Positions 6,130 to 47,847 of a stretch of DNA of 64,000 nucleotides are shown piece by piece (position 1 is the first letter of the stretch; the number at the start of each line of letters is the position of its first letter). The notes beneath the pieces were generated by a model. It searched no databases and was not told the DNA's origin. It was given only the letters and a program-made list of their open reading frames with translations. The position numbers were made by a program, and so were the translations under genes. The DNA is taken from the NCBI GenBank assembly GCA_964035545.1, contig OZ037767.1:22646628-22710627 (forward strand), written 5' to 3'. This DNA comes from Bugula neritina. Taxonomy: Eukaryota; Animalia; Bryozoa.

Positions 6130-6473
6130 GCCTAGAGCCACACGGTGCGCATTTTCGCATGCGAAAATTGAAATCACAAGTAGCAAAGGTGTCCACTGTA
6201 ACGTCAGTGATGCGTGATAAATAAAGCTTTCATTTTTAAATCGCACTCGCTTTCAATAAAACGCAATTTACTGGAATGTAGCACTAAAATAAAGAAATTG
6301 GGCTCGCTGAATAACTACCAGCCAATTAGGTGACGACGACAGAGACGATTCGCACTTGCGTTGAAAATGCTGATCGACAAGTGCGAATGTTTTCTCAACG
6401 CGCACAGTAGACAACTTTGCTACTTGTGATTTCAATTTTCGCATGCAAAAATACGCACCGTGTGGCCCTAGGC
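6130..6473. mobile_element. PIF/Harbinger-type MITE, family A copy 1
   Basis: ~70-bp TIRs (GCCTAG(G/A)GCCACACGGTGCG...), TTA on both sides, near-identical to three other copies in the window. Confidence 0.9.
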
Positions 6474-6606
6474 TTACTGGAGATGGTACATCATTAGCCC
6501 TAAAAGTATACTTCTACATATGATGTTTCGCAACAGGACTTCTAGCCTAAGGATTATAGCACTTCGCTCTTTAGCTATAAGATACTTATCACTTTCGTAC
6601 CCTTAC

Positions 6607-17247: not shown

Positions 17248-18470
17248 AACGCATTGGAACTATGTGTAATGACCTACAAAGGCAGTAGCTCATTGAGCTG
17301 TTGGCATCACCTTATGCAGCTCACATTGATTGGCAAAAAAGCTACGTTTAAACACAAAAAATAACAATTAGACTAAACATTACGTGAATGTTTCAAATGA
17401 TAACTTAAAATGCAAGTATTTGGTAAAAATATATAAAGTGGTGGAATCATAACCAATTTACAATAACTATCTCTTTTCATTCATATTTGTTATTTGACAT
17501 TTAAATATTTTCGATTATAATCTAAGTCAATCTCCTGCTTAGCACTAGTAGTCATATTATAGTACGGCATAGTCATACCGATACTCATAGTAATAGTCAT
17601 AGTGCCCATAGACTTAGAGTTAGATCATCACCATGGTACGTTTACTATTACTAATACTGATATTACTAATATTGCCATAATAATTTATTAGTATTAGTTG
17701 CAACTCTCATTCTTTGCCTAGTATACTTAATACTTCTACTAAATGTAATGATACTTGATAGTGTTATTATAATTATTGCGATTAATATTCACATGTTCAA
17801 GATTCAACATTTTGTATCTCCAAGCTTTGGAACTGTTGTAGTTGCAACCCGCTCTTTGACAGCAAAGTTCTCAAATAGCTTTCAGAATAGGCAAATTTGA
17901 CTGTTTCTTAGACCAAAAAGTCTAAATGTAAAAACTAAAGCTTTCCAAAGATTACCACCTATCAGGATACAAAACATTGTTTGCCTCTAAGACTCTGGTT
18001 TAGAAAATTAAATCGGAGCCAAAGAAGAGCATAAACACGGAGTTCACAGCCTGCTGGTTTGAGATTTTTGTGGTCCAGAGATTGTACTGGGTTATAGGGA
18101 TCTTTTCCCGTCTGCGAATTTTTGATCCCTGCGGTTGTTTCTGGCTGTGAGTGGTTGGAGGTGTTGAGGGAGTGGGCTCACTTGATAGGCTATATTATTG
18201 TAATCATATTAACCAACTCAACAGTTTACTAAGTGATTGACTAACTCTGTCTGTCTTTGACTAGTAACACTATTTATTTATTTATTTACTTATTAATTCA
18301 TTTAATTGATCAACTCTTGTCTGTCTTTGTCTAGTAACACTATTTATTTATTCATCTATTTATTTACTTCCTAGTCCTTAAAGTTACTATTTACTAAAAA
18401 TTCTCTTTGAAAAAAAAAATAATAAAATTTAACGCTGTCTTTGGTCATTTTTGAAAATAAAAAACAAAGA

Positions 18471-19412
18471 ATGACGAAAACCAAAAGGTCAGAATCAACC
18501 TCAAGTACTAGCTCATCAACAGCTAAATGTACCCAGAGGCAGAGTGCTATACTTAATTCTACTCCGGGACCTACCGTGTCTCAGGCGATGTGTGAAAAAT
18601 GTACTAAAAAAATAGATGATGAAGATGAAGGCACCCTGTCAATTGAGTGTGAAACTTGTCTCAATTGGTTTCATTTAGACTGTACTGATCTTATGAAGCA
18701 AGACCTAAACACCATTACGAAAAAGGGTATTCATTGGTTTTGTGACCAATGTGAAGCTGTGGCATACCCAAATTTTATAACCAGACTTAAAGCCATTGAA
18801 TCCCACATTGAAAAAAGTTACGATCAAGTAATGGGTTCATTTCATAATCGCATGACTGCTGTGGAATCTCAACTAACTAGCTTATTTGAGAATCATGTTT
18901 CCAAAAGTGAGAAAACATTTGCTTCGGTGGTTGCAAAACTGGAAGATTCCACTACAACAATAAATAAGCAACTAAAGAACCAAGAAGTTCAAATTAAATC
19001 TATCAAAACAGAAATTTCTAGTGAAAGCAGAGCTAAAAATATCATAGTTTTTGGAATTTCCGAGGAACACGACACTACTTTAGATGAATCCATAGGTAAA
19101 CTCTCAGAAGTTTTAGATTCATGTAGTCTCAGATTTCACGCATCAAGAGATAATGCCACAAGATTAGGACAAAAAAAAGTTGACAAGATTAGACCCATGA
19201 GACTAACACTAGCTTCAGAAGTTCAAAAATGGGAATTTCTAAAACGCATCAACGCTCAGAAAATAGAAGGAGTCTTTGCTCGTCTTGACTTGAATAAAGA
19301 GGAACAAGAAAAGGATTTTCAACTGAGAAGCGAGCTGAGGGAATTGAGGCAGAAAAATCCAGAAAACAAGTACAAGATAACAAACGGGAAGATAATAAAA
19401 GTAAGACAGTAA
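18471..19412 (+). CDS. LINE ORF1 (PHD finger, coiled coil, CR1-type C-terminal domain)
   Basis: CEKC...CETC..WFH..C...WFCDQC PHD pattern; RAKNIIVFGISE and RPMRLTL motifs; frame intact. Confidence 0.85.
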   Translation: MTKTKRSESTSSTSSSTAKCTQRQSAILNSTPGPTVSQAMCEKCTKKIDDEDEGTLSIECETCLNWFHLDCTDLMKQDLNTITKKGIHWFCDQCEAVAYPNFITRLKAIESHIEKSYDQVMGSFHNRMTAVESQLTSLFENHVSKSEKTFASVVAKLEDSTTTINKQLKNQEVQIKSIKTEISSESRAKNIIVFGISEEHDTTLDESIGKLSEVLDSCSLRFHASRDNATRLGQKKVDKIRPMRLTLASEVQKWEFLKRINAQKIEGVFARLDLNKEEQEKDFQLRSELRELRQKNPENKYKITNGKIIKVRQ

Positions 19413-19426
19413 CACATGATAATCGG

Positions 19427-22161
19427 AGAATATTAACAGTAAATGCGAGATCAGTAAGGGGGAAAATATTGGAGATTCAAACCCTCTCCGTTGAATACGA
19501 TATCATTTGTATTACTGAAACACACCTAGATAATGCATTTTTGAATTCTCAATTGTTTTCTCCCAAAGACAAAGTAGTATATAGAAAAGATCGTGATTCG
19601 CACGGAGGTGGTGTATTGATTGCCATAAATGTAGAAATTCCCCATAAGCTAATCAGGTGTGAAACAGAAGCAGAAGCAATCACAGTATGTTTTAGACTGG
19701 ATAGCAAGGAATATTGCAATCTTACTTGCTACTATTGACCCCCTTCTTCACGTGACATGAACTCATTCTTTGAGTACATGAAAAATATTCACACTAAATA
19801 CTCAACAAGTAGAAAACTCAAAACCAGTGATTTTAACCTTCCAGGAATCAATTGGGAAGATACTGGTCTTTCAACTTGTTGGAGGACATACTATACTGAC
19901 TTTCGTAATTTTCTAAATGATAATAATTTGGAACAACTTGTTCATAAATCTACGCACATAGCAGGCAATATATTGGATCTCATCTGTACTGACTTGTCAT
20001 ATAAAGTTCAAAGCACAAATGTAATAACACCGGGTATTAGCGACCATTTCATGATAGAAACGGTCTTGACTGGTAAAGTTGAACGGAAAAAGAAACCATC
20101 TATCCCCCCAACCAAGCTATTTCACAAAATCGAACTCGGCGGGTTTACAACTGGTCTAGATGAGTTGCTTTATACTATTAAAAACAAAGTGATGTTGAAA
20201 TATGATATTAATGTTATATGGAATACATTTAAGACTGAATTACATAGACTTGTTGATTCATATGTCCCAACTAAACAACGTAAGCCTAGAAATCTACATG
20301 AGCCTCTCTGGTTTAATGATGAAGCCAGACGGGCATGTGAGAAACAGCGAAAGTTTTACAACCGCTTTCAAACGTCTGGTGATGCTGATCACTTGGCTAA
20401 ATATAAAGAATTACGTCGCCATAATAAAAAATTATATAAAAACCTAAAAGCATCTTTTCTGGTGAATCGTCTATACCAACCTCTTTCCAGTGGCTACACA
20501 AAACCGTTTTACAAATATGTTAAAGATCTAAAAGGGAATGATAATGAGATTACTTCCATAGAAAACAACGATGGTATCTTGACGTATGATAAAACTAAGA
20601 TATCTAACACTCTGAATGGTTTCTTCTACAGTGTATTTACCACTCCATCACCTCTACCAGAATTACCATCAGTCACTGAGAAAGATAATATAGTGGTAAC
20701 TAAAGAAGGAGTTGTGAACCTGCTGAGACAACTTGTACAAGGTAAAGCTCCTGGAGTAGATGGACTCACAAAGAACTATCTCACAGTAGACTTAGATCGA
20801 ACAGCAGAAATACTGGTGTGTATTTTCAATCATTCACTCAATACAGGAATAGTGCCAGATGACTGGAAGACTACAAATGTAACATCTGTGTTTAAACAGG
20901 GTAACCGCACTCTAGCTTCCAACTATCGTCCAGTATCACTAACGTGCATTTGCTGTAAAATTCTTGAACATGTAGTTCTGCATCATTTAAACACACAATT
21001 GGAAAATTTGATACATGAAAACCAACATGGTTTTCGCCGCAACTTTTCATGTGTTACTCAGCTTGCTACTGTCAACCATGATATATTAAGGCATATAGAT
21101 AAAGGACATTTTGTAGATGCAGTTGTGCTAGATTTTTCTAAAGCCTTTGATGTAATTGACCATCATATTCTTGTAAAGAAATTGATATTGTTAAAAATAA
21201 ATCCCTGCATTATTCGATGGGTTTCATCATTCTTAACTGGACGCTCACAACGAGTGGTCATTGACGGGGTATCTTCGGACTTAGCACCAGTGACTTCCGG
21301 GGTTCCACAAGGAAGTGTGCTGGGTCCAACATTATTCGTTTTGTTTATTAATGACATTGTAAACTGCGTTACACATAGTACAATCAGGCTTTTTGCTGAT
21401 GACACTCTTGTTTATCTACCCATTACTGATCCAAATGATCATCATAAACTACAGGGAGATCTTTCTAGACTTTATAGGTGGGCAAAAGAAAACAATATGA
21501 AGTTCAACTCAAAGAAAAGTAATGTCATCACTTTTGGTAAGAAAACAGAAAATATGGAAAATGTCTTCACTTATAAATTAGGAGAAGATCCCCTGAATAG
21601 AGTTGGAGTTGTAAAATACCTTGGAATATTGCTATCAGCAGATTTGAAATGAAATAAGCATGTCGAAAATATCATATCAAAGGCATACAGAGTACTAGGT
21701 TTAATCAAGCTCACACTAGGAAATGCCCCAGAAAATGTTAAAATTCTTGCGTATAAAACTCTTTGTAGACCTCTCCTAGAATATGCTGCTGAAGTATGGG
21801 ACCCATGCAATAAACATCTAATAACAAAATTAGAAGTTACCCAAAATAGGGCTGTATGGTTCATTAAAAATTTAAAGGGTAGAGAAGTATCGGTAACAGA
21901 TGCCAAAATTGACCTAGGACTAGAAACATTAAGAAAGCGCAGTCACAGAGAATTTCTTTGTTGTGTCGTATTGCTGCAAATAATGATTTATTTCCAACCT
22001 TAAATAACACACTTAAATCTATGAAATCCTCAACCCATAACATGAATACCCGTATTAACACTTTCAATGCTATAGCCTGCGATTCGAGCCTGTACCTGCA
22101 GGGTTTCCTGTTGCGCACTGTCCGGGAGCTCCGTACGGGAGAGATAGTAGCGGATTTCTGA
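19427..22161 (+). pseudogene. LINE ORF2 (APE-RT), disrupted
   Basis: In-frame TGA at 19736-19738 (YY*PP, expected YYRPP) and at 21650-21652 (LK*NKH, expected W); frameshift near 21950; GDFN altered to SDFN. Confidence 0.85.
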
Positions 22162-23110
22162 GCCTGGATAGATCCGAGGGTCCCACAATTACTCTCTTCG
22201 AGAGGTCTTGGGACTTAACCCAATCAAGATCAAGATCAAGTACTATTACTATTAGTAATAGAGTATTACTATTACATTAGTATTAGTATTACTATTACTA
22301 TTAGTATTACAGCATGAACATGAATACAATTTCTAATAGTAATACTAATAATACTAATAGTAATACGCATAAAAAAATTCCATACACCATATAACTATAA
22401 GTATACTTTGTTATATAATAATAATCATAGTACTATAATTATTATCCTTTATAATTATTATAACAATAGGAGTATAATTATAAAATTGATACTAAAAGTA
22501 AAAGTAAATCAATCAAACTAAAAGTAAAAGTAATTAACTAATTCATTAAATGATTAATGATTAAATCATTTAAATGGTAAACTTAAAATCAATAGAGTAC
22601 AGACAATGACTTTTGATATTCCTAAATTCACTTTTTCCATACACACAATATTTAATAATATATTTGTGATACATTTATTCAGATAATATTTGTATTTATA
22701 AAGGAATTTTACAATAAATAAGTTAAAGTATTAGTATAACTAGCAATTAAAATGCTAGTACTTTTTGAGTTTAGCGTGAAGGTTGCTAGAAACAGCACCA
22801 AGTTAGTAGCCATTGAGTGCAGTAGTTCGGGTCTCGAACATCGAACTCAATAATAATGGTCTATTCCAGCTCAGTGGTCTCGAATTTGGAGTTTGGACAA
22901 CGACGTATTTACAAATTTTACACCCAGTCACCCCTAAACTTGTGCTGTTTCTAGTGAAATTCCCTAGAATGAGCTTAGTGGTCTTGACATTAGTATTAAC
23001 CCATAAAAATAACTGCGTATGCGAACTTTCGATTATAATATGATTCTGTTGTTGAAATACTCTAAAGGTAGCAATTCTTTCCCTTTGAGAGCTAAGGTTA
23101 AAGTTTCAAG

Positions 23111-26100
23111 ATGGCCGCTTCCATAATGCCACACCTGAGAGTAATGTTAAATTCAAAGCGTTGTACCGCTATTAATTGTATGCCTGGATTGCTGCCCAAT
23201 ACTAAGCGGTTATGCTCGAGTTCTGTGAATGATGTTAAAGAATCTGGTAAAGCAACAAAGCTTTCTCATGGCCCTTCTCTTAAACATTTTCTTGATAAAC
23301 ATAGAAGGTTGGCGGGGAGTCACGGTCAGAATCAGAATCAGAATGACTATGAGAATGAATTTGAAAGTAATTCTAGTTTGAGTCAACAAGTGACCAAAAG
23401 TAAACATATGAACGCTGAACTTGAGCAATCAAGCGTGCATCCGTACATTGCAGAAAATGCTTACGGTGGTCATGGAAGAAAGGGTAAGAACTCAAAATGA
23501 CATCTACTTCTAGTAACATGATCAACATGTTACATGATTGTGATTTAGATTATATTTATGATTTATCATCAGGTGATTATAATTATTCGTTAAGTAATTA
23601 TATTGTAATTAACAGTTGACTAAGAAATTTTTCAATTAATATTTTATGTTGAACAATTGGTAGTAATTCTTGTTTTAGTAAAAAATAATATTGAACATCA
23701 AAATAGCTGTAGTCAAATTGAAATTAAATCTTGTAGGTCATAAGCTCTTGGGTTCTTTTTAATCATACTCCTATTCTTGTGATTACTTATCAATTATTGC
23801 TAATGTTATTACGGTCACCTAGTAGTATTACCTACTTTTAAATAGTTTTTCTCTGGTCACCATATTCTGGACAGCCTTGCCATTAGATTGAGTGAGCTTA
23901 GGCTTTTAGTTTTAGTTTTGTATGCCTAATGATAATTCAACTACTATTACGAAATCTAAAGCTCGTGGTCATTGCTATGCTTTCTGTAAAGCAATGGCTA
24001 GTAGTAATACTAAGCCTAGGGCCACACTGTGCGTATTTTCGCATGCGAAAATTAAAATCACGAGTAGCAAAGGTGTCCACTGTAGCGTCAGTGATGCGTG
24101 ATAAATAAAGCTTTCATTTTTAAATCGCACTGCTTTCAATAAAACGCAATTTACTGGAATATAGCACTAAATAAAGAAATTGGGCTCGCTGAATAGCTAC
24201 CAGCCAATTAGGTGACGACGACAGAGCCGATTCGCACTTGCGTTGAAAATGCAGAGCGACAAGTGCGAAGGTTTTCTCAACGCGCACAGTGGACACCTTT
24301 GCTACTTGTGATTTCAATTTTCGCATGCAAAAATACGCACCGTGTGGCCCTAGGCTTAGTCTAATAGTCATTTTAGTTTTACATAACTAAAAGTAAAATC
24401 ACAACTTTTGCAAGTCAAGTTGTCAAATATATATAAACGAATGCTTTAAATGTAGTTGCTATAATTTTTCTAATCATTTCCATTTTATTTCTACAAAGTA
24501 TGTATATAAATATCACATTCTGAAATATTGTAGTAAATTTTGGGCTATCTATAGTGTTAATAGCTGGTAGATAATCACTTTGAGTTTATGATGATGGCTA
24601 TGTAGTTGACTCACTATGACTAGTAGTTATTCATACGATATGGCGTGATTAGTAGCCAGACAATTATATGCCTTGATAAAGCTATCATTTGTAACCCTCT
24701 AGTAATCATGTAAATAGTTTCCCTGAAGGGGGGTAGAACAATGGCTAAATCTAATAGCTACACCGTCAAGTCTGGGGAATTTCCATCTTCAGATGCATCG
24801 ACTTGCCCCAGAGAATTCTAGAACTTCTGTTTGGATGAATACATGGATGGACAAGGATTGGCTGGCTGGTCCACGGTGTTACTCATAAGCTTAGGCCGGC
24901 CTGTAAATGGGCGTACCATAATATATAAGGAGGTGACTGGCGCCCAGAAAGTTGGAAAGTAGTTAAATACTGTGGCGTTCTTAGTCATTGTGTACTGTTA
25001 TTTTACTACTTGATCATTTACTTTTTGGGTTAATAATAAATGGAGTAGGTTTAACCTTCAAAATAGGCAAACCTACAATACATGTCTACTCACAGAATAC
25101 TCTTGTACCTTTCTTTTGAATAATAACCAGTAAATTAAGTAATAGCATTGGTTCTTCTCAATAACCCACAAAATGGAATTTATATACTCTGAAGTTCCAC
25201 AACAATATATGCTATGTAAGGTTCTACTCACTCGGCAGTCTGTGTTAGAGTCCCCTCATGCAGTCTACTTTTATTCTTCCAATAGCCAATATCTAAGCTG
25301 TACAAGCTGGTTGGAAATCCGAATGCTTGTAGGGCAGTTAGCCAATCACCTCAGATTAGCTTGTAGCTAATCTGATTATAAATACCATAAACTACATTAT
25401 ATTCCAATATAGGCCTATACAAGTGTTGAAAGTTTTAAACTCTCTTTCTGAAATCCATGTTAGGACTGCATCAATTCTTAATTAGCAAGTTTTAATTCCA
25501 GCTAGATTTTTTTTATTTATTTGTATATATTATATAATTTATTAAATTATATATTTAATCAGAATTTTATTTAATTTTGGTTTTGATAATTGTTCTCATG
25601 TATCAAGTTTCAGTCTTGCTTTTTTGGTATTTGTGGTATAATTAACTAGTTTCACAACATACCATATATGGTAAGTGATGACTCACCAGTTTGCTATGTT
25701 GTAGTATATTTTGAGACTTATGGATGCCAAATGAATGTGAATGACACAGAAATTGTTTGGTCTGTACTCAATGCACATGGGTTTGCCAAAACAAAGAACT
25801 TAAAAGAAGTAAGTGATTTCTACTCAAAAAACTTTTGTAGATAATTTAATTGACATTCAGTGCTGCAACACATACAATCAGTAACTAGGCAACCTTTAGT
25901 AGATAGCTTGATACTACTGTTAGAAACACTGAGTTTGTACCATAGCAAATAAAACTTAACAATAAGATTAGAATGTATCAAGCTGTTGGCTTGTCATGAG
26001 CCATGCTAACTCATGTGCCAGCAGACAGAATTTTGTTTATATTCAAATTCATATTGATAATAAGTAACCCATTATTTTATTTTACTAACAAAGCAAATCA

Positions 26101-29100
26101 TAAAATTAAAAATTCTTATGAGATTCAGAGAAAAACCAACTGCTTATTTTTGAATTAATAACGTTGATGACTTCTAGGCAGATGTAGTTCTGCTGATGAC
26201 GTGCTCAATAAGAGAAGGTGCTGAGAAGAAAATATGGAACAGAGTGGATGCTCTCCAAGCTCTAAAGCGTAGACAGAATCCTGTGAAAATTGGTATTCTT
26301 GGTATGTACATGTAATGTCAATAAAAATCCATTTTTTATTCTAGCTTTCCTACTTTGGCAATTTTTCACTCAAAAATTCTCACTGACTGTGGCGTACTAA
26401 TCAGTAGTTGTGTATTGTTTAGGTTCTCTGAAAGAAATTAACAAAATAATTTATACTGTTACAGTAATAAATGTTATATTATATATTTTATGTAATTGAT
26501 AATTGTAAATATTTCATTTGAAATTTTATGTTAATAAAGTTATAAAAACAGTTTAGGCATAATTGTATTGGTGTTGTAGGAGTTGCCTGTTCTGGCAATA
26601 AAACATTTTATCCTTAAAAGTTGCATCTAGTGAGTAGTGGATACATTGTGGTATTTATTTTATTGAATAAAAAATTTGAATAAGTTTTAAAATGACCTCA
26701 TGCTTCTGTACAAGCAGCAACTAAAGTTCACCAAACCCGTAGCAAAATTATTTTTGTTTTTCACTATCAATTTCATGAAAGAATCATCATGGGATTAAAT
26801 CAAAGTTTCTGCAGTAAAAATCTCATGCGAGTATTCATGTGGGTGTGTGCAGATGTCTAGAGTTTTCTGTCCACACGGTCAATACTTAAAGTAGTTGAAC
26901 ATCTGAATCACTCTTCTTTTCTGTAGGTTGTATGGCTGAAAGGTTGAAATCTCAAATACTGGAAGAGAAGAAATCAGTGGACTTGGTGTGTGGCCCTGAT
27001 GCATACAAAGATCTACCCAGACTTCTCTCAGTTACATATACTGGCCAAACCGCGGGTAGATAAATCAGTTTATTCTTCTTGGGTTATTGACTAGATCATA
27101 CTCTCTAATGTGCACTAACCTAAAGTACGGTTAAAGTTTCATTTGCCTCTGACTAAACTCTGTAATTAATCAAAGAAGTTCCAGGTTTTTACATGTAGTA
27201 GTTTTCTTCACAGTTATCATAACATCAACTTTTCTACCTTGTTTTAGTCAACGTCCTGCTCTCATTGGAAGAGACCTACGCTGACGTAATGCCCATCAGA
27301 TTGAGTGAGAGTTCACCGTCAGCATTTGTGTCTATCATGAGGGGCTGTGACAACATGTGTAGTTACTGCATCGTACCGTTCACTAGAGGTCGAGAGAGGA
27401 GCAGACCAATCACCTCTATTCTAGATGAAGTCAAGCAGCTTAGAGATCAGGTGACTATTTTATATCTGTCTGTTTGTCTCGCCAGTTTTCTGTCAGCATG
27501 TTTCTGTGTATTATACAAGTCTGGCGTTGAGCCATATACCAATTCTTCTGTGTTAGCACTTAGCAATCTCCCCAGCTAGACATTTGTTGTGTAAATCTAA
27601 GTTTGCATTATTGAAAGGTACTTTTAAGTGTGATATAATACGGTCCTTATAAATATAATATATTATGTGTTTACAGCATTAGTATAATATATTCTTATGA
27701 TATTTATGCACAGAGTCATTCTATAAGCAGTTCTGGGTTAGGGGGTGACTGAGTGCAATAGCTTGAGATTCCAAGTTCCAACTTAAACTCCAAACTGAAG
27801 AATCACAAACTACTGCACTCAGTCACCCCAAACTCAGAGCTTCTTATAGAACCATTCCTGTGCACATGTCATGTAATATCTACATGTTGTTGAAGGGAAT
27901 AAAAGAGGTCACACTGCTGGGTCAGAATGTCAACAGCTATAGAGACTTGTCAGAATACTCAAGTGCTGATAACTCCAGACCCAAGTCGCCCACTAATTTA
28001 GCTAAAGGTATGCAGTAGTTCAATATCATAGCTTCACTGTTGCATGTCACCTTTCTGTGACATCATCATCCCCTTTCTGTGACATCATCATCCCCTTTCT
28101 GTGACATCATCATCACCTTTCTGTGACATCATCATCACCTTTCTGTGACATCATCATTGCCTTTCTGTGACATCATCATCGCCTTTCTGTCATATCATAA
28201 TCACCGTACTGTGACATCGTCATCACCTTTCTGTCACATCATCATTGCCTTTTTGTGACATTATCACATTCTTGTGACAAATATTAAATACAAAAATAAA
28301 ATGAACAAAGCCAACCGAAAATCAGACCCAGTAACAGTTCAAGGACAAGCTCCACTGTTGTATTTCATGCTAAGTGAACACATCACCTGTAAAGTATATA
28401 TTAATAGACCTGCATACTCATATGCCTTCATGCCGCAGGTTTCAAGACGATTTACAAGACAAAGCTGGGTGGCCTGAGGTTTGCTGATCTGCTTCATCAT
28501 GTGTCAGCCTCATGTCCCGATATGAGAATTAGATTCACGTCTCCTCACCCTAAAGATTTCCCTGACGAGGTATGTTTGTCTATAAACAGTTCTTACATCG
28601 TTTGTATGATCGTTTGTGCTGGCAGCATATTATTCATAGTTAGAGTTGATTGGTCACTGATTGATCATGTGATCATTTTTTCCATGTCGCTACTTGACTA
28701 AATTATTTCACCAGCTATCAACTCTGCACTATTAAGGATTGTGAGGGTTTTAATGTGTAAAGTTTAGATGAATATTGTAGATCTATATACTTCATTTCAC
28801 TGGACACCTTGACTGATAGAATTGTTTTTTGTATTTAAATTTAATGAAATTTAAAAGTAATCATCAGACCTAATAAGTATACAATGTCTTAAATAGTTTT
28901 TATCAACTCTATTATTCTTCAAAGGCAGTTTTTCATCTTCCATCAACTTTGTCTTTTTAGTAAATGATATAAATTACAAACATTGAAAATCTAAGCTCTG
29001 TGACATTTAAAACTTTGATACCAGATGTAAGAGTGTTTCCATCATAATCATGTAGTGTCTGTGTACAGTAAAGTATTTGTGACACAGCCATCCCTTTATG

Positions 29101-35771: not shown

Positions 35772-37610
35772 ATGGAAGGCATAGAAATACAGGTGAATTT
35801 ATAGAAAAACTTGTTAACATTTAGAACTAAGACTACTCAACAAAGACCATTCATACTAAAATTAGAAAAATATTATATTCCATATTCATAAACCTTAGGT
35901 ATGGCCATTCAGTGAAAAGACAAGCAGATGGAAAGAGTTAGTTGATATTTGGTACCACTTCTGGCAGTATGAACCAATCAACTCGGCTATACTGAACATT
36001 CTAGAAGGGGATAACCGAGAGTTTATTGGCTATGTGTTCAGAGACATGCTGAGTTATGATTCAACTCCTTGTGTTGTAGCCTGGGATACTGTGAAAAACA
36101 AAGTAAAGGCTTTTGTCACCCATAATACAGTGCATTAAATGTGGGGGGGAATAACTGTTTGAGGAAATACAACTTACAAATTGTTAAGGCAACTTATTCA
36201 CATGTATCCAGTAAGCACAACAGGATTCTGATGGACTAAAAATGCTGACTAATTTTACAAGAGAACGTGCTGTAACAGTTTTGTTTACTTTTACACTCAT
36301 TGTTACATATCTGCCTTATATAAGAGCACGGCATATCACTATAATCTAATTATGTATAACAATAATAGTATTTAACAATTAGGATGAAGTAATTCCACTA
36401 TTTTTTAATTTTCTGATTTCCAGGCTGTTGGATTTGTCTTCCCTATGGTTCAGTATACCCCTGAAACATTACCAGCAGATTTGAAAGGTAAAGAGTTGTT
36501 GGACTTTGGAAAGTATCCCTTCAAGCCAGATGTGCAGCAGAAATTGAGAGATATCGGAAACTTCCTTGACAAAGTGTTCACAGAATCAAATCTATTCGCT
36601 CATTTAAGGTGTATTAATATTTCATTTCTATCTATAATCCATTTGGGTGAGATTTTGAGTAGTACAACTATAAGTGTTTTACTACAAACTACTAGAGTCT
36701 TTCTCTCCTGGTGCTGTTGTACACTTCGATCTGAATTTGTTTTAAAAGCCTATAACCATTTACTACCTTGAAATTTTTATATAGCTAGTCCTTATAACTG
36801 ATTCTGGCCTGCATAATGTTTTGGATACGATAAAAAATATCTACATGTAAGAAATTAAAAAAAGGTATCATTAAGTTACAGTTGAACTTTAAATCTTACA
36901 CTCATACACTAATTCTGTCCCACTAAATCAGAGAGCTAGTAAATCTATCTAACCCATTGTTATTTGATAAATTCAGTAGTTCTTGAATTTCGAAATGATA
37001 TAAAATGTGTTACTCAAGTGGTAAAAGGTTTGGTAGTAAATTTTGTAAGTCATGAAGCATATCAATTAAATTAGGTTCACTCATTATAAGGAAAACTTTG
37101 TCCCACATTGAGAGACAATGCTATTCAAAAAAAATGTTTTGGCAGTAAACCATTGACAGTTGTGGTGAACATTAAAAAAGAACTGCTACTGGTAACATTT
37201 GTAAATAATTCTTTTAATTTAACTGATTAAATATCCTAATTGTTGAAGCAATGTTTGGAAAAAATAAAACTCACTTTAAATTCTCTGTACTCAGCCATGT
37301 GCTATGTTACTGTTACAGTGTAGACAAGGTGTTTATGATCCACATAACCAGTGTCTTGAAAGAATACACTAGAAGGGGATTAGCCAATGAAATGACGAAG
37401 AAAGTCTTAGAAGTGGCCAAAGAAGCTGGATTTGAGTATGCAGTTTCAGAAAGTACAAGTTCATACACTCAACACAATAAGATTAAAAGATTTGGTTTTG
37501 AAAAAATATTTGAGATTGACTTTGAGAACAACTATGCCAACTATGACTCCATGCCTGCATTCATAAAAGAATCCCACAAAGCTGTAGCTGTGTTGACTAA
37601 GAGGTTGTAA
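35772..37610 (+). CDS. GNAT acetyltransferase, insect-type arylalkylamine N-acetyltransferase-like, paralogue A
   Basis: Exons 35772-35792, 35899-36102, 36424-36608, 37319-37610 in frame. FxxYEP(I/L) motif, motif A ITSVLKEYTRRGLA, STSSYTQ...RFGF, C-terminal H..VAVLTKRL. Confidence 0.8.
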
Positions 37611-40253
37611 AAGTGTGACACCAAGTAGCGTATTATATGCAGTTATAGTTTTAGATTTTCTTTATTGCTTATAAGCTCTATATATTAGAAAACTTCAAAT
37701 TAGCAGAATGTGTGAAGTGAAAAGCTATTTGCACTATCTACAAGGACAGTGAACTAAGCATTCACATCATTGTAATACCTACAGTTTGAAAGTTGTAGTC
37801 ACAAAACATACCATCTTGGTAGTCTACTTTAAATTTCATTTAAATAATGTTATTGGGAGCATTTTATTGTTTTGATTACAGACATATAACATGATATATG
37901 TTCTAATGCAGTATTATTAAGGGTATAGATGTGAACTGCTTATTGGTGACCTGTGACCTATGAGACCAATAGCTCCAACAAGTAGACTGTCAATACCAAT
38001 TTTACTCAATCTTATGAGTAAAGTATTGTAAACTTCTAAATGAATCCATAGGGATTAAAGTATTTGCTACATCTATACCGTGAAAATGCAAGACAAATAA
38101 TTTTACTAATGCATATTTAAAAGGTGTGTGAATTCTTATTACCTATATAAAGTTTTCATTCACTTAATGGAAATTTCTATCACTAAAATATATAATATTA
38201 TTAATGGTATAAAGCAGTGAAATAAATTACAGGGTTGTGGTGAAGGAGTTATATACTATACTAAGTCAAAATGGCTTGAAGTTCTTGAAACATGTCTCCA
38301 CTTGAACTTTATTTCGTATGACTGAAACTAAATTCTTATAAGACGTAGTCTTTGTTCAAATGTTACATTAACAAAGCAGCTTTTAGGTTTGCAACATTCT
38401 AAATACACATTATAAAGTTTTTTACCTATAATACATCCTCATATACATTACATGTCATATATTGGTAAAGATTCAGGGTTATTATAATTTAAGGTAACAT
38501 TACAAAAACTGCACTCTCTGGTAACAATACCATGTCATAATTGCAGTTTTGATACAATTTGCAAAGGGGATTTTCCTGTCAGATACAACTTTTTGAGTTT
38601 AGACCAATAGGTACTGTAAAAATTTTGAGAACTATAAAAAAATACAATATAGCTGATAATATAGAAATTGCCCAGAAGTTCAAGGAGTTAGTAGTTAATT
38701 GCATTGTAAAATAGCATATAGTTGTCAACTGTAATGACTGCTGATCACTGCACAAAACAATATGATACAAAATATTGGCAGAAGCCATTGTTGTCTATTC
38801 TCTAGATTTGGTGCTTGCAAAGTAGTTTTCTAATTCCATACGTGGAAGTGAAACAATGAATTAATTATATACGAGCCCTAACAAGCTATAGAGTTGTCTA
38901 CTAAAGCTTTAAACTAACGTGATCACAACTTCGCACTTAGTTTCTCTTTTTCGAGACAACTCCTTGTTATGATTACATCCGAGTCGGTCAAGGTTAAATG
39001 TTAAAAGGCTATGGCCCCCACCAGTTCAAGCGAGATCCATAGCAGCTCCAAGTCAAAGTGTAGCTCTTTTTAATCTTTTAAATCGTAAATAGATACTGAG
39101 ATATCGGCTAAAAGGTTAAGGTTCATAAATATGTTTTTGAATACCATTAAAAGCATTATCTCTCATAAAATATTTGATCAATATGAATAACTGCTTGTCA
39201 AATTATGATTTAACTCTAAAACTAAAAGTAAAGGCGAGTCGGTCCGAGTCCAAGTTGAAGTTTATAAATTCTAATTTAGAAATATTAGATTCAACAATTT
39301 AACTTAATTTTAATACTTATAATAATATTTAAGCTTTTAGGCTATCCTAGTACTACTAGCATTATTATTGATAACTATGTGCAATCTATCGTTAAGGTTA
39401 ACCTTAAGCTTAGCTTAGCATCTACTTCTACTTATACAGTTATAACTTATAGCTTTAGAATATAGATTTGGCAATTGCTGAACATCATAATCATGATGAT
39501 GAAATGATAATGATAAAGCTAATTATATTAATATTTCATGTTCGGCTAGTATAACTTCATAAATAATTATCTTGTTATAATCTACTTTTAAATCATTTTT
39601 TAAATGAGACTAATTTTTGCAGCATCATTATATTTATTGTGTTATATGTAAAAGTGTGAAGGGTTATTGTAGGTTTTTTTAGTCACCATGATGTAGCACG
39701 TTTTAACAGTAGTTTTATTTTTATTATCATTATACTACGCTATACTAGTACAACTAGAATTATGTTCAGCAAATAATATGTTCATCACAACTTAGGCAGT
39801 TATAGTTGTACTAATAATCTGTAATTATATTTGCCCTTTTAAGTACACTGCTGATATTTTTGCAGTATGTACGCTTTAGATTTTGTTCAGTTCACTCATA
39901 TATCTTTTTACTTTACTTACATTTCTTATATTTGTCGAATTATTGCTGTTTATACTTGCGATTAAGTTTTAAATAGGGTCTGAAATATAATGAAAGTAGA
40001 TAGCTAACATTAACAGTGTAATCATATAATTAGTTCAGTTAGGTTATGAATTTTATTCAGTACTTATTTAAGATTCTATTGATTATTCGATACAAAAATT
40101 CAAGTCATACCTGATTTGAATAGATTCAATAATAAGTTATAAGTTTACTGTAAGGTTTAGTGTTGCTTGATGCCATTAATAACTTGTTTTACAGTTTTTA
40201 ACCCATTAATGATGTCAAAAGTGATTCAATATCTAACTTGAAATTAGTAATAG

Positions 40254-40606
40254 TGTAGTAATTCGTGCAATTACTGTGCGTGAGTTATCTACTTGCGTAT
40301 AGTTAGTTGGTTATTCTGCTAGTAATTACTAGGGTAGCTGTCGAGTAATTATATTTATTATCCACAATAAAGCATAAAGTAAACATCACATCAAATTATC
40401 CTATACATCAGTCAACTGCTAATACATGTTTCTCCTTCAAGCCTCCGCTTACAACAACGTGATAAATTGTTAATAACCCGGGAAGTGTCACGTGAGTCGG
40501 AAGCATATCTTCCGGTGCTGCTAATTGGTTGCTACATAAGGGTCTTAGTATTCCCAGAATAGAGAGAGGGTGATTCCCGTATTTGTACTTTGCATGACTC
40601 ACTACA
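40254..40606 (-). repeat. 3' LTR (preceded on minus by G-rich PPT TGGGGGGCGG, ~40607-40616)
   Basis: Direct repeat of 45266-45618. Confidence 0.95.
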
Positions 40607-40903
40607 CCGCCCCCCCAACAGAAAGCCCTACTTTCTGATAACACAATACAAAAAAAACACATAAAGAAAAACTATACAATAATCCAAAAAGAAAAACATA
40701 CATAAGTAAACCCACAAAGAGGAAGAAGAGAAATAGTTGAGCACGACAACATTTATATACAGAAGTAAACAGGGTGATCGAACACACACATCTAGTCAGC
40801 TATAAAGAGAGAGGGTGCTTACCAGCACGCGGGCCAATGTCGGAGCACTCGTCACTTTCCAGACGAAATACAGCTCAACGAAAGGTGCCTACCCCAGGCA
40901 TAC

Positions 40904-41961
40904 TCATTGGGTGGACTCTGACTCTTGTAGCGAGCGTGCTCTGTGTCGAGCCTGTCGGGCACGTAGCCGCCTCTTCAGTCGCCCCACTGAGTCCTTCAAC
41001 TGGTATAGACCTGTCGTCGTATCCAGCAAGTCAGGGGCAAGTTGTGTGAACTCGGCTTGTAGTCTTACAAGCCGCTCTTCTACATTAGCCAGCTGGCTAG
41101 GCCTTGGCGGGGTTGTAGTAGTCTCTGTTAGAGGGGGTATTGTTGTTCCTTCTAATTCGGGGGTGTTGCTAGGGTTGACGGGGGTAGGAGACGGGCCCTG
41201 AACCATAGGGGACTTATGGCGGGCGGATAACAGCAGTACTTGGAACCCTGACGCTAGTGCGGCCAGGGTGATAGCCTTCCTGATGACTGGCTTGATGGCA
41301 TCCAGGTATTGGGGGAAACTGTCCTCATCAACAGTATGGTTCTCTCCGGCGAAGCAGCTCAGCTTATGGACTGTCACGGGATACGGGTATACGTCGTGGA
41401 ACCCGCATGGGCAGAAGTGGAGTAGAAAATGGGCGTCTACATGTAGACGCAGGGAGCGGTGTGACGGGCACTCCTCGAAGCAGACCTGGCAGGTTCGGTG
41501 GGGTCCGCTGGGTCCCCAGGCTTCCTCAATTCTCCTTTCCGTCGTGGGTGACACCCAGCGGTGTCGTCGACGAAGCACCACGGGTATGCCATTCTCCATT
41601 ACAGGTTCCTCTTCCATAGGCAGAGAGGTTGGCTGGTCCCGTGACCGGGAGGTGGTCACTCGAGTGTGATCTGAAAGAGTAGCAGTGTTAAAGATTATAC
41701 ACTGAGGTACCGTCGGCGTGTACAGCCTGACCGGTACGCTGTTCAGTTACACTCGTGAGATTCAGGCTAATGAATAGTTGATGGAGAACACACTCGCTAT
41801 GGCAGATTATTTAAAATCAAAGTCGACGTGTATTCCCACCACTGTTTATCATTATCGAATCTCCAGCTCGCTAGCTAATGTAGCTAAAGCTGACTGATGC
41901 AGTCTAGTTATCGTACCAAAAACATAATTAACTCACCCTTCGATCCAGAATAGTAAGACAT
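40904..41961 (-). CDS. Retroelement accessory ORF3 (~263 aa): C2H2 + C2HC zinc fingers, coiled coil, basic tail; spliced
   Basis: Mini-exon 41961-41937 (ATG...AAG G|gtgagt) joins in phase to acceptor ctctttcag|AT at 41670 and to the 251-codon ORF ending at 40904. Fingers C-x2-C-x12-H-x3-H and C-x-C-x12-H-x3-C. Confidence 0.7.
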
Positions 41962-42309
41962 TTTGGAATGAGAGCGGTAAATGATTACTGTTTAGTGGCA
42001 CGTCTACTCTTGACTGCATCAACGTAGGAAAAGACCGGACAGCGTGGTTGTGAAACGTGACTATGGCTTTTCACTTCCAGCGGATGAATCTCGTGTGAGA
42101 TTCCGACGAGGCAAAAGTTGAGATTTCCGTGGTGTTCACAACTCCCACGTCTCTTTGCCTGTTTTCCCATGCGAGGCCTCTCTAGACTTTCGTTACTGCC
42201 GCTTATACCGCGGTCACGTACACAGTCTCTGAGACACGCTGGAAGTTGCCTAGTGTGTGGTCCTGGAGGCGTCGTCACTGTGGGAGGCGGTGTGCTCACC
42301 CGTGGATTG

Positions 42310-44333
42310 TTATGTCTCACGGGTGGTTTTTCCAGCCTGTTTGTGACGGTTGTTCCTACGTTGGTATCTCCTTGCGGAGCCCCTCCCACGAGGGGTTTTT
42401 GCACTTCCGGACCCGTTTCCGGTTCCGGAAGTGGTGGTGATGGCAGGCTTGACGTTGGGGGCGGTGGGCGCACTTTCAAGGACGGAAGTGGCCTTTCTCG
42501 CCTCGCCAAGTCTTCCTGAGGTGTCATGGAGGTGTTTCCGGCCAGGACGACAGTCTCCGCTTGCCAAGAACCTTCTCGCACAATGCGTCTGCCGCCCCGC
42601 TTCACCAGGGAGACGGCTATGCTTGTTGGTCTGGCAGACTTTGCACCGTCTCACTCTGCGCCGGATATCCCGCTCCATGTTGGGCCAGTACCACCGGAGT
42701 TGTAGCTTGGTGACCACCCCTTGGACTCCTCCGTGAGTCTTCTCCTGGGTGTCTTGTATCAACTCCCGGCGGATGGCAACTGGGCAGACGACCCTCTTCC
42801 TGGCTGGCTGTCTGCTGTTGGCGGCCAAGGTCATGGTCAGCAGACCATCTGGCCCGACCCGCAGAGAGTTCCAACGTTGACAGTACAGCCGTAACTCGGC
42901 GCATCCCTGTCGCCGTTGTTTACTACTGGGTCGTCGCCCTTCCTGTTTCGCTCGGTACACGTCGGCTACCACCCCAGGAAGGCTTTCCTGGAGCTTCGGC
43001 AGCTCCCTAACGTTACCAGCCCATACAGGTTTGGCGCGGAGGCTCTGGACAGCCTCCGGGGGCGTGTCAGCCCTCTGTTGGAGTTGCTGAGCAGGGGCGG
43101 TCTTCGCCGCCCGTGGTACCTCACGACAGCCTGCTCTATTTAGGCGGGCGTCGTGGTCTGTGTGGCGGAACGCCTCACTGTACCCATGTGGCAACCTAGC
43201 CATAGCCTGGCGCTTTCCGTTGCCTGTGCAGCCACGCGTCCCTGGAGGATGGGAGGCGTGGGTTGGGACGGTCCTCCGCCCTTGAGACGGGCTCTGCTGA
43301 GGACCTTCCGTCGTAGCTCCCGACGACGCCCCAATGGCTTCCTCCTGGACAGGATGGAAGCGGCCCAGCATGGACCTGGGTGGTAGGTCTACTGTCTCTG
43401 AGGAGGGGTTGACACACTGCACTGAGATCTCTCCTTGTCCCGTAAGCCGGCTAAAGCTATGGGCAAGTTGGACTCTCGAGTGCGTACTTTCGACAACTCC
43501 CAACTTAGAGGTTTGGCCACCGTCTACCTTGCAGCGGACGGTAGCCCGGGAGTGGCCTGGTATAGTACAGCTCCGTACTACCTGCACTGCTCCCGCTAGA
43601 GGACGACCAAACTTATCGACACAAGCGAGCTCCCTGTCGCCCATGATCATCGCAGATTTACTGAAATCGATGCGACATCTGTGTCGTTGTAAGAATGGCA
43701 TCCCGAGGATAGCGTCCTCGTTGAGCTGCCCGACGATAAACGTCTCTTGGATGGCCTGGTTACGGACGTAACCAGTCAGCTCAATAATGCCGTAGAAGGG
43801 AATGCACGACCCGTCTGCCAGGGTGCCATGATCCCCCTCATACGGTGCCAACCCGTCCTTGACCTTAGCGCTGAGGGTGTCAAAGAATTGACGGCTAAGG
43901 AGGTTGGTGGTGCAGCCTGAGTCCAGGAGGAAGTTGGCAGGCTTGCCGGCTAGCTTTCCTGGCAGGAAGTAGCTACTTCCGTGTGGCTGCAGCTGTGTGC
44001 GCCGTGGTTGCACCTCCCTCGCTGTGGGTCGAGGGGTCCACGGTTGGCGACGACTATTGACCAGCTGCCGAGGTTGGGGCGGTATGCCTTGCGGCGCCTG
44101 TACCGTTTCCCTCGCAGGCTCTGAGATCAACCGTCTGCCGGCTCCGTGTTGGTGTTGGAGTGGCGTAGAGGACCCAGGCGGTGAGTGGCTTGAGCCTACT
44201 TGCCGCGGGGGTCGCCACTTCACAGCATCTCTGCGCGGCGCCCAGCGGGGCGGCAGACGCGCGGGCCTCCCTGGGTGATTTACAGACGGCCCGCAGGAGG
44301 TGGGAACATCTGCGGGCCGTGGTAGTTTAACCC
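42310..44333 (-). CDS. Truncated pol: aspartic protease + integrase zinc-binding remnant; RT, RNase H and integrase core absent
   Basis: FLLDSGCTTNLL and AILGMPFL (protease); THGG...WYWPNM...CKVCQ (integrase HHCC-like remnant); no YxDD motif seen. Open in the -1 frame relative to gag. Confidence 0.85.
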
Positions 44334-45230
44334 TTGTTGGAGTTGAGGGCAGTTCCTCTGGAAATGTCCTGGCCTTCCGCATCCCCAGCAGAAGTTGTGC
44401 CCCATGCCTGGTGATTGTACCTGCGGCCCGCAAGGCTCACGGGCGGTATCTACCTGGCTTGGGGAAGCTAATGTGGCGACCAGTTTATCTAGCATGTCAG
44501 TCATCTGTGCGACTTTTGATGCTAGTGACATCTGGTTCACATTAGCCACCGCGGAGGGTTCCGCGTTTGGTTCGGTATGAGCAGTAGTGTGCTCCGTGGT
44601 CACCTGGCGGGAGGCCACGCGGTTGCGGTGCATATGAGTCGCCATGAGGTAGGCTTCTCCCACCGCAAGTGCATCTTCGACCGTGGTGACTCCCCTCGCT
44701 TGGAATTGATGGTGGAGCCCCAAGTCGTTGATGGACTGCACGAAGGTATCATAAGTATACCTCTCACGGTGTACTGGAGGCAGATCGCGGAACGCGATCT
44801 GCGCTAGTGGGTACACCGTGGCAGCGTGCTCTTGTAGCGACGTGTGAGGATCACGCCGCAGCCTTTGTAGACGGGCCCGCGCATCTATGGGGGAGATGCC
44901 AAAGCGGGCCCGCAGAGAAGCAAAGATTCCGTCTATGTCAGGTCCCGCTCCGTACGGCTTAGCCTTGTCCGTCAGCGCCATCCTGAGCTTGAGCAACGCC
45001 ACCCTTGGCGGCCACTGTGCAATCTCCATCACATCTTGGAATTCTTGGATAAACTGCTCCACTGCTTCTTCGCCTGTGAAGGTGGGCGCCTTCAGCCGGT
45101 ATCTGTCTTCACCATGCTCTCTAGGAATTCTCACTTCTTCTTCTAACACCACTGGTTCCACAGGTATATCAACATTATCTCTCTCACCTTCATTCAGTGG
45201 AATGAGTAGCTCCGTGCCGTCTTCTGCCAT
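44280..45230 (-). CDS. Gag with CCHC zinc knuckle
   Basis: KAPTFTG capsid-like start; CWGCGRPGHFQRNC knuckle; first ATG at 45230, just after the PBS. Confidence 0.9.
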   Translation of the reverse strand: MAEDGTELLIPLNEGERDNVDIPVEPVVLEEEVRIPREHGEDRYRLKAPTFTGEEAVEQFIQEFQDVMEIAQWPPRVALLKLRMALTDKAKPYGAGPDIDGIFASLRARFGISPIDARARLQRLRRDPHTSLQEHAATVYPLAQIAFRDLPPVHRERYTYDTFVQSINDLGLHHQFQARGVTTVEDALAVGEAYLMATHMHRNRVASRQVTTEHTTAHTEPNAEPSAVANVNQMSLASKVAQMTDMLDKLVATLASPSQVDTAREPCGPQVQSPGMGHNFCWGCGRPGHFQRNCPQLQQGLNYHGPQMFPPPAGRL

Positions 45231-45246
45231 GACTGCTATACGCAAG

Positions 45247-45264
45247 ATCCCACTGCTGCCACCA
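45247..45264 (-). other. Primer-binding site, tRNA-Leu type
   Basis: TGGTGGCAGCAGTGGGAT, 1 nt after the 5' LTR, complementary to the ...AUCCCAC(C/U)GCUGCCACCA 3' end of animal tRNA-Leu. Confidence 0.8.
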
Positions 45265-45265
45265 C

Positions 45266-45618
45266 TGTAGTAATTCGTGCAATTACTGTGCGTGAGTTAT
45301 CTACTTGCGTATAGTTAGTTGGTTATTCTGCTAGTAATTACTAGGGTAGCTGTCGAGTAATTATATTTATTATCCACAATAAAGCATAAAGTAAACATCA
45401 CATCAAATTATCCTATACATCAGTCAACTGCTAATACATGTTTCTCCTTCAAGCCTCCGCTTACAACAACGTGATAAATTGTTAATAACCCGGGAAGTGT
45501 CACGTGAGTCGGAAGCATATCTTCCGGTGCTGCTAATTGGTTGCTACATAAGGGTCTTAGTATTCCCAGAATAGAGAGAGGGCGATTCCCGTATTTGTAC
45601 TTTGCATGACTCACTACA
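45266..45618 (-). repeat. 5' LTR
   Basis: Identical to 40254-40606 except gggCgattc versus gggTgattc. Confidence 0.95.
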
Positions 45619-45916
45619 ATAGTTTTATTTTTATGTGAATTTCCATATTCAAGCCAATGGTATACTCTAGTTGTTATTTTCACAGAGAAAGATCTTTGTA
45701 TATGTTTAGTGTAGATATTAGAAATGTTGTAATCAATTGTCAAACTGAAAAGGCTATAATTGAACGGCACTATTTGAAGGTTTTTATAATAGTTAGTTGA
45801 CTCACTCCTTTAATCATTAGTATTGTTTCTGTTGACTTAAATTAAATTTCTGTTGAAAATGTTTTATCTTTTCTTGTAGCTATAATTTTTGCAAATATTT
45901 TGTTTTAGATTTATCA

Positions 45917-47847
45917 ATGGAAAATATAGAAATTCAGGTAATTTCTTTAATCTCCACAGACTCTCTGCCAGAGATTTATAATTTTTACTTTTTTTGATAT
46001 TTCATATTTATTATCAGTCAACCTTCACGGAAAGTAATAGTTGAGTTTATCGGATCTACTTTAATATGTAACCTGTTTATATGTGCCAACCCTGTCAACT
46101 GCATCTGATAAGGAATCACATTTAAGATTTCTTGTTAATCTAAATAAATAAACTGCCTGACTTTATCGGCCTTTGTGACATATATTAGTCAAATTACCAG
46201 TCCCTCCCATTTTTATTATCAGGTTTGGACAGCGAATGAGAAACTAAGCAGATGGAAAGAGTTGGTTGACATTTGGCTGAACTTTCGGAGGTATGAACCC
46301 CTGAGCTCTGGTATCATGGACCTTGAAGATGCAGAGACAAGGGAATATGCAGGATATGCATTCAGAGACATGCTGAGTTATGATTCTACTCCCTGTGTTG
46401 TAGCCTGGGATACTGTAAATAACAAGGTATACAGTGTAAATTTATTAGTTCAATTACTCAAGTATAATGGGCTTAGTTTTTTTTAATAAAGTAAATGCAC
46501 TTTATAGGAACCTATGCTACATGAATTTTAGCTCATCTCTTATTGACCTTCTCTTTTTATGTTTTGTCTAATGGTATTAAAGGTAAACCTTAATCTTACA
46601 TTATAACTACTGGATTGTTGCACCGCAGACATTTCTCAACTGTACCATCTATCTATTAGTTATTCAAATATTTTTCATTTAATTTTTTGTAGTTTACCAA
46701 TTAATATACACACGGAATATATACAAGCAAGCTGTGATATAATAGAGCATGTAGATAAGTTGTATATAATATAAAGTGTGTCTCAAAGAATTAAAAACGC
46801 AAACAGACGGTTGACTATTGTAAATGAAGTCAGGTTCTGAAATTAACACAACATATTTGGTGTTAGCCTAGGGCCACACGGTGCGTATTTTCGCATGCGA
46901 AAATTGAAATCACAAGTAGCAAAGGTGTCCACTGTGCGCGTTGAGAAAACCTTCGCACTTGTCGCTCTGCATTTTCAACGCAAGTGCGAATCGTCTCTGT
47001 CGTCGTTACCTAATTGGCTGGTAGTTATTCAGCGAGCCCAATTTCTTTATTTTAGTGCTACATTCCAGTAAATTGCGTTTTATTGAAAGCGAGTGCGATT
47101 TAAAAATGAAAGCTTTATTTATCACGCATCACTGACTCTACAGTGGACACATTTGCTACCTGTGGTTTCAATTTTCGCATGCGAAAATACGCACCGTGTG
47201 GCCCTAGGCTTACAGGTTATTAGATAATATCTTTACTGTATATTAGGCAGCGGGATTTGTGTTCTCCATCGCTCAATACTCTCCTGAAGCGACTCCATTA
47301 GAGTTGCAAAGCCGATGTCTTCGTAGCTTCGATAAATATCCGTTTGGTGAAGGGGTTCTGAAAAAACTAAGTGGCGTTGCAACATTCTTGCATGAGCTGT
47401 TCAACAAAGCAGACGTATTCAACAAACTCAGGTGAATTACGTTGTGCATACGTACACACTGTAAATTACCCATTATATATATACTGTGTGCACACATGTT
47501 TTGCATTGCGTGTTTTACACTCTGTACTTAGCTATGTGCTATGTTACTGTTGCAGTGTAGACAAGGTGTTTATGATCCACGTAACCAGTGTCTTGCAAGA
47601 ATACACTAGAAAAGGATTAGCCAATGAAATGACAAAGAAAGTCTTAGAAGTGGCCAAAGAAGCTGGATTTGAGTATGCAGTTTCAGAAAGTACAAGTTCA
47701 TACACTCAACACAATAAGATTAAAAGATTTGGTTTTGAAAAATTATTTGAGATTGACTTTGAGAGTAATTATGCCAATTATGACATGATGCCGCAGTCAT
47801 TGAAGGAGACCCATAAATCTGCTGCCGTTTTGGTAAAGAGGCTGTAG
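45917..47847 (+). CDS. GNAT acetyltransferase, insect-type AANAT-like, paralogue B
   Basis: Exons 45917-45937, 46223-46426, 47247-47431, 47556-47847; same exon structure and phases as paralogue A. Confidence 0.8.
46866..47209. mobile_element. PIF/Harbinger-type MITE, family A copy 4 (in GNAT-B intron)
   Basis: Same TIRs; TTA on both sides; ends 37 nt before the exon at 47247. Confidence 0.9.

Follow-up and report, generated by a model that had tools for sequence, protein, structure and literature searches.

Background

Little is known about how LTR retrotransposons export intron-containing RNA or escape from silencing. A locus of the bryozoan Bugula neritina poses this question in a concrete form: a 64,000-nt stretch of DNA (assembly GCA_964035545.1, contig OZ037767.1, positions 22,646,628 to 22,710,627; hereafter the window) carries a Gypsy element with an additional, intron-containing gene in its env position. 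The original prediction held that this gene encodes a zinc-finger/coiled-coil protein made from spliced RNA, acting as a nuclear regulator like the accessory proteins of complex retroviruses. We asked whether the gene is real and spliced, what kind of protein it encodes and which role for the element fits it best.

Results

The element and its neighbourhood

The gene lies within a non-autonomous Ty3/Gypsy LTR retrotransposon with TG..CA LTRs and a target-site duplication. Its parts are the following:

40254-45618 (-): LTR element, 5365 nt
45266..45618 (-): 5' LTR, 353 nt, TGTAGT...ACTACA, with AATAAA at 45371
40254..40606 (-): 3' LTR, 1 mismatch against the 5' LTR
40250..40253 (+): target-site duplication, 4-bp ATAG; second copy at 45619-45622
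45247..45264 (-): primer-binding-site-like 18-mer starting with TGG, 1 base past the LTR
44280..45230 (-): gag with a CCHC knuckle (zf-CCHC E 4.4e-4)
42310..44436 (-): pol-like frame of 708 codons with a protease and an integrase H2C2 domain
40607..40616 (-): polypurine-tract-like G-rich run before the 3' LTR

We take the primer-binding-site-like 18-mer to match tRNA-Leu. The LTR motifs TGAGTCA and CACGTG, at 45607-45613 and 45501-45506 (-) and again in the 3' LTR, are presumably matches to the AP-1 and E-box consensus, respectively.

RT, RNase H and the integrase core are missing from the pol-like frame, as judged by Pfam domains, and the H2C2 zinc domain of integrase is still present (PF17921, E 1.8e-12); the loss of all three enzymes, as originally proposed, thus holds for RT and RNase H and not entirely for integrase. 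In the window the protease precedes the integrase H2C2 domain, and the full PR-RT-RH-IN order is seen in P0238, which is 52% identical to the window over the protease region. Five of the 31 long Pol relatives (54-95% identical) share the RT-less run from the protease into the post-RNase-H region, and others are complete Gypsy Pols. Because these five relatives share it, the RT-less layout is an old family trait and not, as the original prediction implied, decay of this copy. Relative to P0228 and P0229 the pol-like frame shifts near 42,570. The RT-less family (P0228, P0229, P0230, P0232 and P0234) keeps its long open protease (+ integrase-H2C2) frame at 54-95% identity, so selection may act on this truncated product too.

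Host introns and intergenic DNA are represented in the DNA run X2 at a depth of ~63-146 across most bins of the flanks, partly with no difference from the window, so the run derives from the genome of the same species or a very close one. It contains the empty site, as a joint of depth 92.9 that skips 5369 nt (the element and one duplication), hence the insertion is polymorphic. The depth is 11,868-28,044 over the element and ~12,000 over the accessory gene, ~125x that of unique flanks, a summed depth and not a copy number. With a polymorphic insertion and such depth, the element family is active now. Since the LTRs differ at only 1/353 positions, the open frame of the accessory gene in so young a copy, previously read as a sign of maintenance after the loss of RT, proves little, and we rejected it as evidence of selection.

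The insertion is flanked by duplicated GNAT acetyltransferase genes (35897-37610 and 46221-47847 (+); 300 nt at 90% identity). A MITE-like element of ~350 nt with terminal inverted repeats of ~75 nt occurs in four copies (6126-6477, 13038-13387, 24009-24360 and 46861-47215). The stretch 38038-38371, of depth 7431 in X2 amid unique DNA, is probably a small high-copy repeat. Elsewhere in the window we take 18426-22003 (+) to be LINE-like, with a PHD-like ORF1 followed by endonuclease and RT-like frames broken by stops; presumably ankyrin-repeat ORFs occupy 720-5297 (-), one of 831 aa and another of 226 aa that continues into a caspase-like stretch.

Layout and splicing of the accessory gene

The gene and the signals around it are arranged as follows:

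41937..41961 (-): coding mini-exon of 25 nt with ATG (MSYYSGSK and one base)
41671..41936 (-): GT..AG intron of 266 nt, donor GTGAGT at 41936, end CTCTTTCAG (TTTCAG) at 41671
40904..41670 (-): exon 2, 767 nt, 255 codons and stop
41177..41614 (-): folded double-zinc-finger domain (C2H2 and C-x-C..H..C, with flanking helices)
40931..41101 (-): coiled coil, then Arg-rich tail
45182..45190 (-): splice donor AAG/GTGAGA (GT at 45187) that follows Gag codon 14, of phase 1 and in frame with exon 2
41937..42013 (-): candidate middle exon of 77 nt, bounded by the 42014 acceptor and the 41936 donor
41896..42020 (-): predicted long hairpin over the 42014 acceptor and the 41936 donor
41757..41863 (-): second predicted hairpin, within the intron

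Joined, the mini-exon and exon 2 give 792 nt with a single stop at the end and a product of 263 aa, with the boundaries predicted originally; exon 2 has 255 codons and not the 251 then counted. The acceptor-like site reported upstream of the mini-exon is also there, ending at 42014. The in-phase gag donor at 45187, the predicted hairpin over the splice sites and the fusion of the same zinc domain to the Pol of an autonomous relative (see below) had been overlooked.

The gene is very likely made from spliced RNA, as indirect evidence from sequence indicates. The RNA run X1 contains 5% of the words and exon 2 lies outside its coverage, so it speaks neither for nor against splicing. In the DNA run X2, a joint between 41670 and 41937 skips exactly the 266 nt of the intron, with CT..AC ends, which makes the predicted splice joint more than a chance match. 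It was seen at likeness 80 and 90 and has a depth of 843, against ~11,900 over the intron bin and ~90-115 on unique flanks; it comes from 1 contig, whose short side of 29 nt is below the 31-nt bridging mark. The intron-less DNA form would most simply represent copies reverse-transcribed from spliced RNA.

Relatives point the same way, with the conservation of splice sites read from off-frame protein read-through and not from DNA. The exon-2 start is read through in 33 homologues, and 31/33 have [LF][SL][DG], as a pyrimidine-YAG acceptor would allow; the rest are P0012 and one mis-hit. P0003 starts at V-S, 265 nt upstream of exon 2, at the expected place of the donor. P0229 (65% Pol identity) ends in HVLLFRIEE where the window has NVLLFWIEG-stop, which would fit an ATG, exon length and donor identical to those of the window.

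Two in-phase donors (gag 45187 and mini-exon 41936) could serve the one acceptor at 41671. In P0012, an N-terminal Gag-like 14-mer (11/14 identical to Gag of the window) leads directly into the beginning of exon 2; as P0012 is one protein known without its DNA, a deletion could also account for the join. The E-G-E-R encoded at the gag donor also occurs in 2/2 other Gag N-termini seen. None of the 8 X2 joints listed runs from the gag donor or to 42013. If the gag donor were spliced to the 42014 acceptor, a stop would lie 24 nt ahead of the mini-exon ATG, so this route would require re-initiation.

Conservation and distribution of the gene

The search for relatives found 124, of which the 120 listed are 51-94% identical to the query; 52 of those listed cover at least 80% of it, the rest being partial or broken, and a wider search added a further group at 25-38% identity. 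Conservation is region-specific: when 146 close relatives are compared with the query, the finger regions prove 70-75% identical, the coil 77% and the Arg tail 79%, against 26% for the linker. The eight Cys/His ligands are kept in 84-98% of those rows having a residue at the position; in a wide alignment of 55 rows four of them never vary and the remaining four are present in 50-54 rows. The distant relatives with long C-termini have a basic cluster in 20/24 and a heptad run in 13/24. Region-specific conservation across the 146 relatives led us to reject a one-off capture of host sequence, and the accessory gene is almost certainly real and under selection, as far as comparison of sequences can tell.

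The homologues include both element-linked relatives and annotated bryozoan genes. Among 30 proteins looked up, the only organisms named were the bryozoans Watersipora subatra and Bugula neritina, and RefSeq/GenBank proteins of both contain the domain. Beyond the copy in the window, a link to Gypsy is seen in P0012 (Gag leader), P0095 (in which a post-integrase region is joined to the gene) and P0242. The last is a full PR-RT-RH-IN-SH3 Pol of 1810 aa that carries in frame the domain at 1604-1704 (E 7e-24; hhalign probability 98.9) and, C-terminally, a coil; it is the only such fusion among the 31 long Pol relatives. In a tree of 44 domains from 42 chosen proteins, the family of the window forms one clade (100/98), named proteins are scattered among unnamed ones, and P0242 has a long branch of uncertain placement.

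P0143 and P0182 each carry the zinc domain twice in tandem; the former, a Watersipora RefSeq gene with isoforms, is a candidate domesticated gene. Within the window, a post-integrase frame at ~42060-42130 (-) weakly resembles accessory finger 2 (tblastn E 4.5e-4, 1/263 queries), which may reflect chance or a decayed duplicate.

Properties of the predicted protein

All the protein features named in the original prediction were found: two fingers, a Pro/Thr linker, a heptad run and an Arg-rich tail. Finger 1 is a canonical C2H2 finger (C-x2-C-x12-H-x3-H); finger 2 (C-x-C-x12-H-x3-C) follows a hydrophobic linker of 5 residues. The heptad run has L/I/V/M/F at 12/16 a/d positions. The basic patch RRRHR, also noted before, is present in the protein of the window and varies among its relatives. 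By sequence, the Arg-rich tail and the putative oligomerising coil are Rev/Rex-like; the four NES-like leucine-rich patterns all fall within the folded domain.

The 146-residue domain is predicted to fold with a pLDDT of 93 and a pTM of 0.85. Pfam has no family for the protein of the window; the zf-C2H2 profile at E 0.01 matches 6/55 family members, this protein not among them. The best hit of a PDB sequence search with it had E 0.48. A fold search with the full protein model returned generic coiled coils only, and with the domain model Foldseek gave no match at E 0.001 and VIA a best Z of 3.8, which is no proof of a new fold. ESM Atlas matches were unnamed clusters and generic C2H2 sets.

Predicted RNA structure at the splice sites

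The sense strand of 42025-41890 folds with z -5.42 (0/200 shuffles), and the opposite strand nearly as well (z -4.97). Across three folding contexts, the mean pairing is 1.00 for the 42014 acceptor, 0.93 for the 41936 donor and 0.43 for the 41671 acceptor. The hairpin within the intron has z -3.59 in sense and -1.83 in antisense. Of the scanned windows of the element, 23 fall below z -2, and one gag window is equally strong. Neither predicted hairpin had a match in Rfam. One arm of the first hairpin appears in read-through as LMQS in P0229, its partner as LHQS in P0003, a hint only that the hairpin may be conserved. Structure of this kind could explain why an intron with near-consensus splice sites is retained in most genomic copies.

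The structure within gag, 44721-44870 (-), with z -5.49 (0/200 shuffles), is a candidate packaging or dimerisation signal.

Discussion

The accessory gene occupies the env position, on the same strand as gag, and its product is conserved and non-Env, as its sequence indicates. What had been predicted thus stands as to a conserved, very likely spliced accessory gene, and its regulatory role stays a proposal. The reading that we tentatively prefer is a protein that acts in the nucleus on the splicing or export of RNA from its own element and would protect or export the unspliced form, resembling CERV of the nematode element Cer1 or Rev. It is preferred because the splice sites are strong and yet the RNA is mostly copied unspliced, because the predicted structure wraps the splice switch, because the Arg tail is the best-kept part of the protein, and because CERV, in the accessible part of its description, is an experimentally tested case with a matching layout (PMC10309623). 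Against it, patterns resembling an export signal lie only within the folded domain, which is unlike the domains described for CERV; the hairpin is nearly as good on the other strand, in an element with 23 scanned windows below z -2.

DNA binding is the commoner role of C2H2 fingers, and a zinc module with a linker, a basic patch and a coil is a common layout of transcription factors. Both facts favour a DNA-binding transactivator or anti-silencing factor, acting as a finger-domain dimer on the LTR or an internal promoter and raising transcription, and we consider such a factor nearly as likely as the RNA regulator. Arg/Lys residues of the finger-1 helix are conserved (R53 in 37/55, R54 in 32/55 and R56 in 39/55 rows), the finger pair, as the only part of the domain to do so, aligns weakly with DNA-binding C2H2 arrays (Kaiso: Z 3.7, rmsd 3.5, 59 aligned), and the N-termini are acidic in 18/25 distant relatives in which they are long. 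However, there is a single canonical finger and no tandem canonical C2H2 array with TGEKP-type linkers, the +6 position of the finger-1 helix is Val or Leu in 41/55 rows, and the protein of the window has no long acidic arm. The four copies of GAATCTC upstream of exon 2 (reached in 10/500 shuffles, for a region chosen afterwards) might be taken for binding sites, but they are the arms of the hairpins and so need no protein to explain them. CERV, moreover, is dispensable for transcription according to the accessible text (PMC10309623).

Other roles fit less well. P0242, whose Pol carries the domain and the coil in frame, is the one protein that suggests an integration-targeting or chromatin-tethering module, begun as a C-terminal extension of integrase and later split off as a spliced gene. 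We regard this as improbable: the other 30 of the 31 long Pol relatives have no such domain, the family of the window retains the domain without an integrase core, and ~300 low-complexity residues follow the integrase of P0242, so the domain there may belong to an adjacent gene that is in frame by accident. The presence of the domain in annotated bryozoan proteins could indicate a captured fragment of a host gene carried without a role for the element, for which we see very little probability in view of its region-specific conservation, a depth in X2 similar to that of the rest of the element, the link to Gypsy in three divergent records and the scatter of named proteins among unnamed ones in the tree; a distant host origin of the domain is possible, a functionless passenger unlikely. 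An Env-like protein or fusogen mediating transfer from cell to cell, to which the env position, the gag strand and the coiled coil might point, is scarcely credible. The protein has neither a signal peptide and transmembrane anchor nor a hydrophobic N-terminus, its best 19-residue hydropathy mean (1.55) falls inside the folded domain, and the eight conserved Cys/His fit zinc binding. We therefore rejected an Env identity, in agreement with the original prediction.

If the protein is a regulator of the element's RNA, early transcripts would have the gag donor joined directly to exon 2, giving a 14-residue Gag leader, or the ATG of the mini-exon would be used. The mini-exon hairpin would keep the splice sites mostly closed, so that the intron is retained in most packaged RNA. 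The protein would oligomerise through its coil, enter the nucleus and bind the RNA of the element, perhaps at the intronic hairpins, via the Arg tail or the fingers; binding would shift the output to full-length RNA for Gag synthesis and packaging. A broader version, more speculative and rather unlikely as a whole, is a bryozoan Gypsy circuit independent of retroviruses and Cer1, in which a hairpin gates the mini-exon switch and the zinc-finger product licenses full-length genomes, the module moves between a spliced gene, an integrase fusion and domesticated genes of the host, and RT-less families survive in part because they provide it. The parts open to test are two donors, one acceptor, a predicted splice-site hairpin and a confidently folded, unclassified zinc domain, a module found as a separate gene, as a Pol fusion and possibly as a host gene.

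HIV Rev and Tat, HTLV Rex and Tax, and foamy virus Tas are made from a short ATG exon that splicing joins to a 3' exon close to the LTR. The gene described here shares with those of complex retroviruses the probable splicing of an ATG mini-exon to a 3' exon, an Arg-rich segment and a predicted oligomerising helix; it differs in that no sequence or fold link was found, there is no clear export signal and the element has no env.

Spliced or additional non-Env ORFs of LTR elements are already known. Bdelloid LTR elements have family-specific non-Env ORF3s that are typically spliced and, according to the parts accessible, are of GDSL, DEDDy, TM or CC (coiled-coil) types, and the word zinc is absent from the main text of that paper (PMC5408684). 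The MDG1 group of Drosophila encodes sORF1, a small nuclear Gypsy-group accessory protein with no known function, which, as described in the accessible text, differs from the gene here in lying upstream of gag, being unspliced and having a predicted helix-turn-helix (bioRxiv 2025.03.14.642691). Additional ORFs of plant LTR elements, as far as the accessible portion of their description extends, are mostly antisense and carry other domains, in contrast to the sense-strand gene here (PMC7264820). The accessible parts of PMC13524379, PMC8220671 and PMC13326412 contain no such zinc-finger ORF. Our literature search turned up no account of this ORF family, though entries in Repbase, Dfam or GyDB, subscription journals or supplements could contain one, and found no paper on bryozoan Gypsy LTR retrotransposons. 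What appears to be new, as far as found and judged by sequence features, is the double-zinc-finger, coiled-coil type.

The closest functional counterpart is CERV of the C. elegans Ty3/Gypsy element Cer1, described in the accessible text as a nuclear protein of 517 aa, encoded by 5 exons and composed of H, M and G-protein-like domains, which is required for export of the genomic RNA (PMC10309623). The two genes share their position and an in-phase gag donor, the join being seen here in the relative P0012 only. Compared with the available description of CERV, the bryozoan protein is shorter, at 263 aa, and has a C2H2 and C2HC domain and a C-terminal coil; no G-protein-like match was listed in fold searches with the domain model. 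In the literature accessible to us CERV is the sole tested Gypsy-encoded case, and the accessory gene of Bugula neritina would be a second, apparently unrelated candidate from another phylum.
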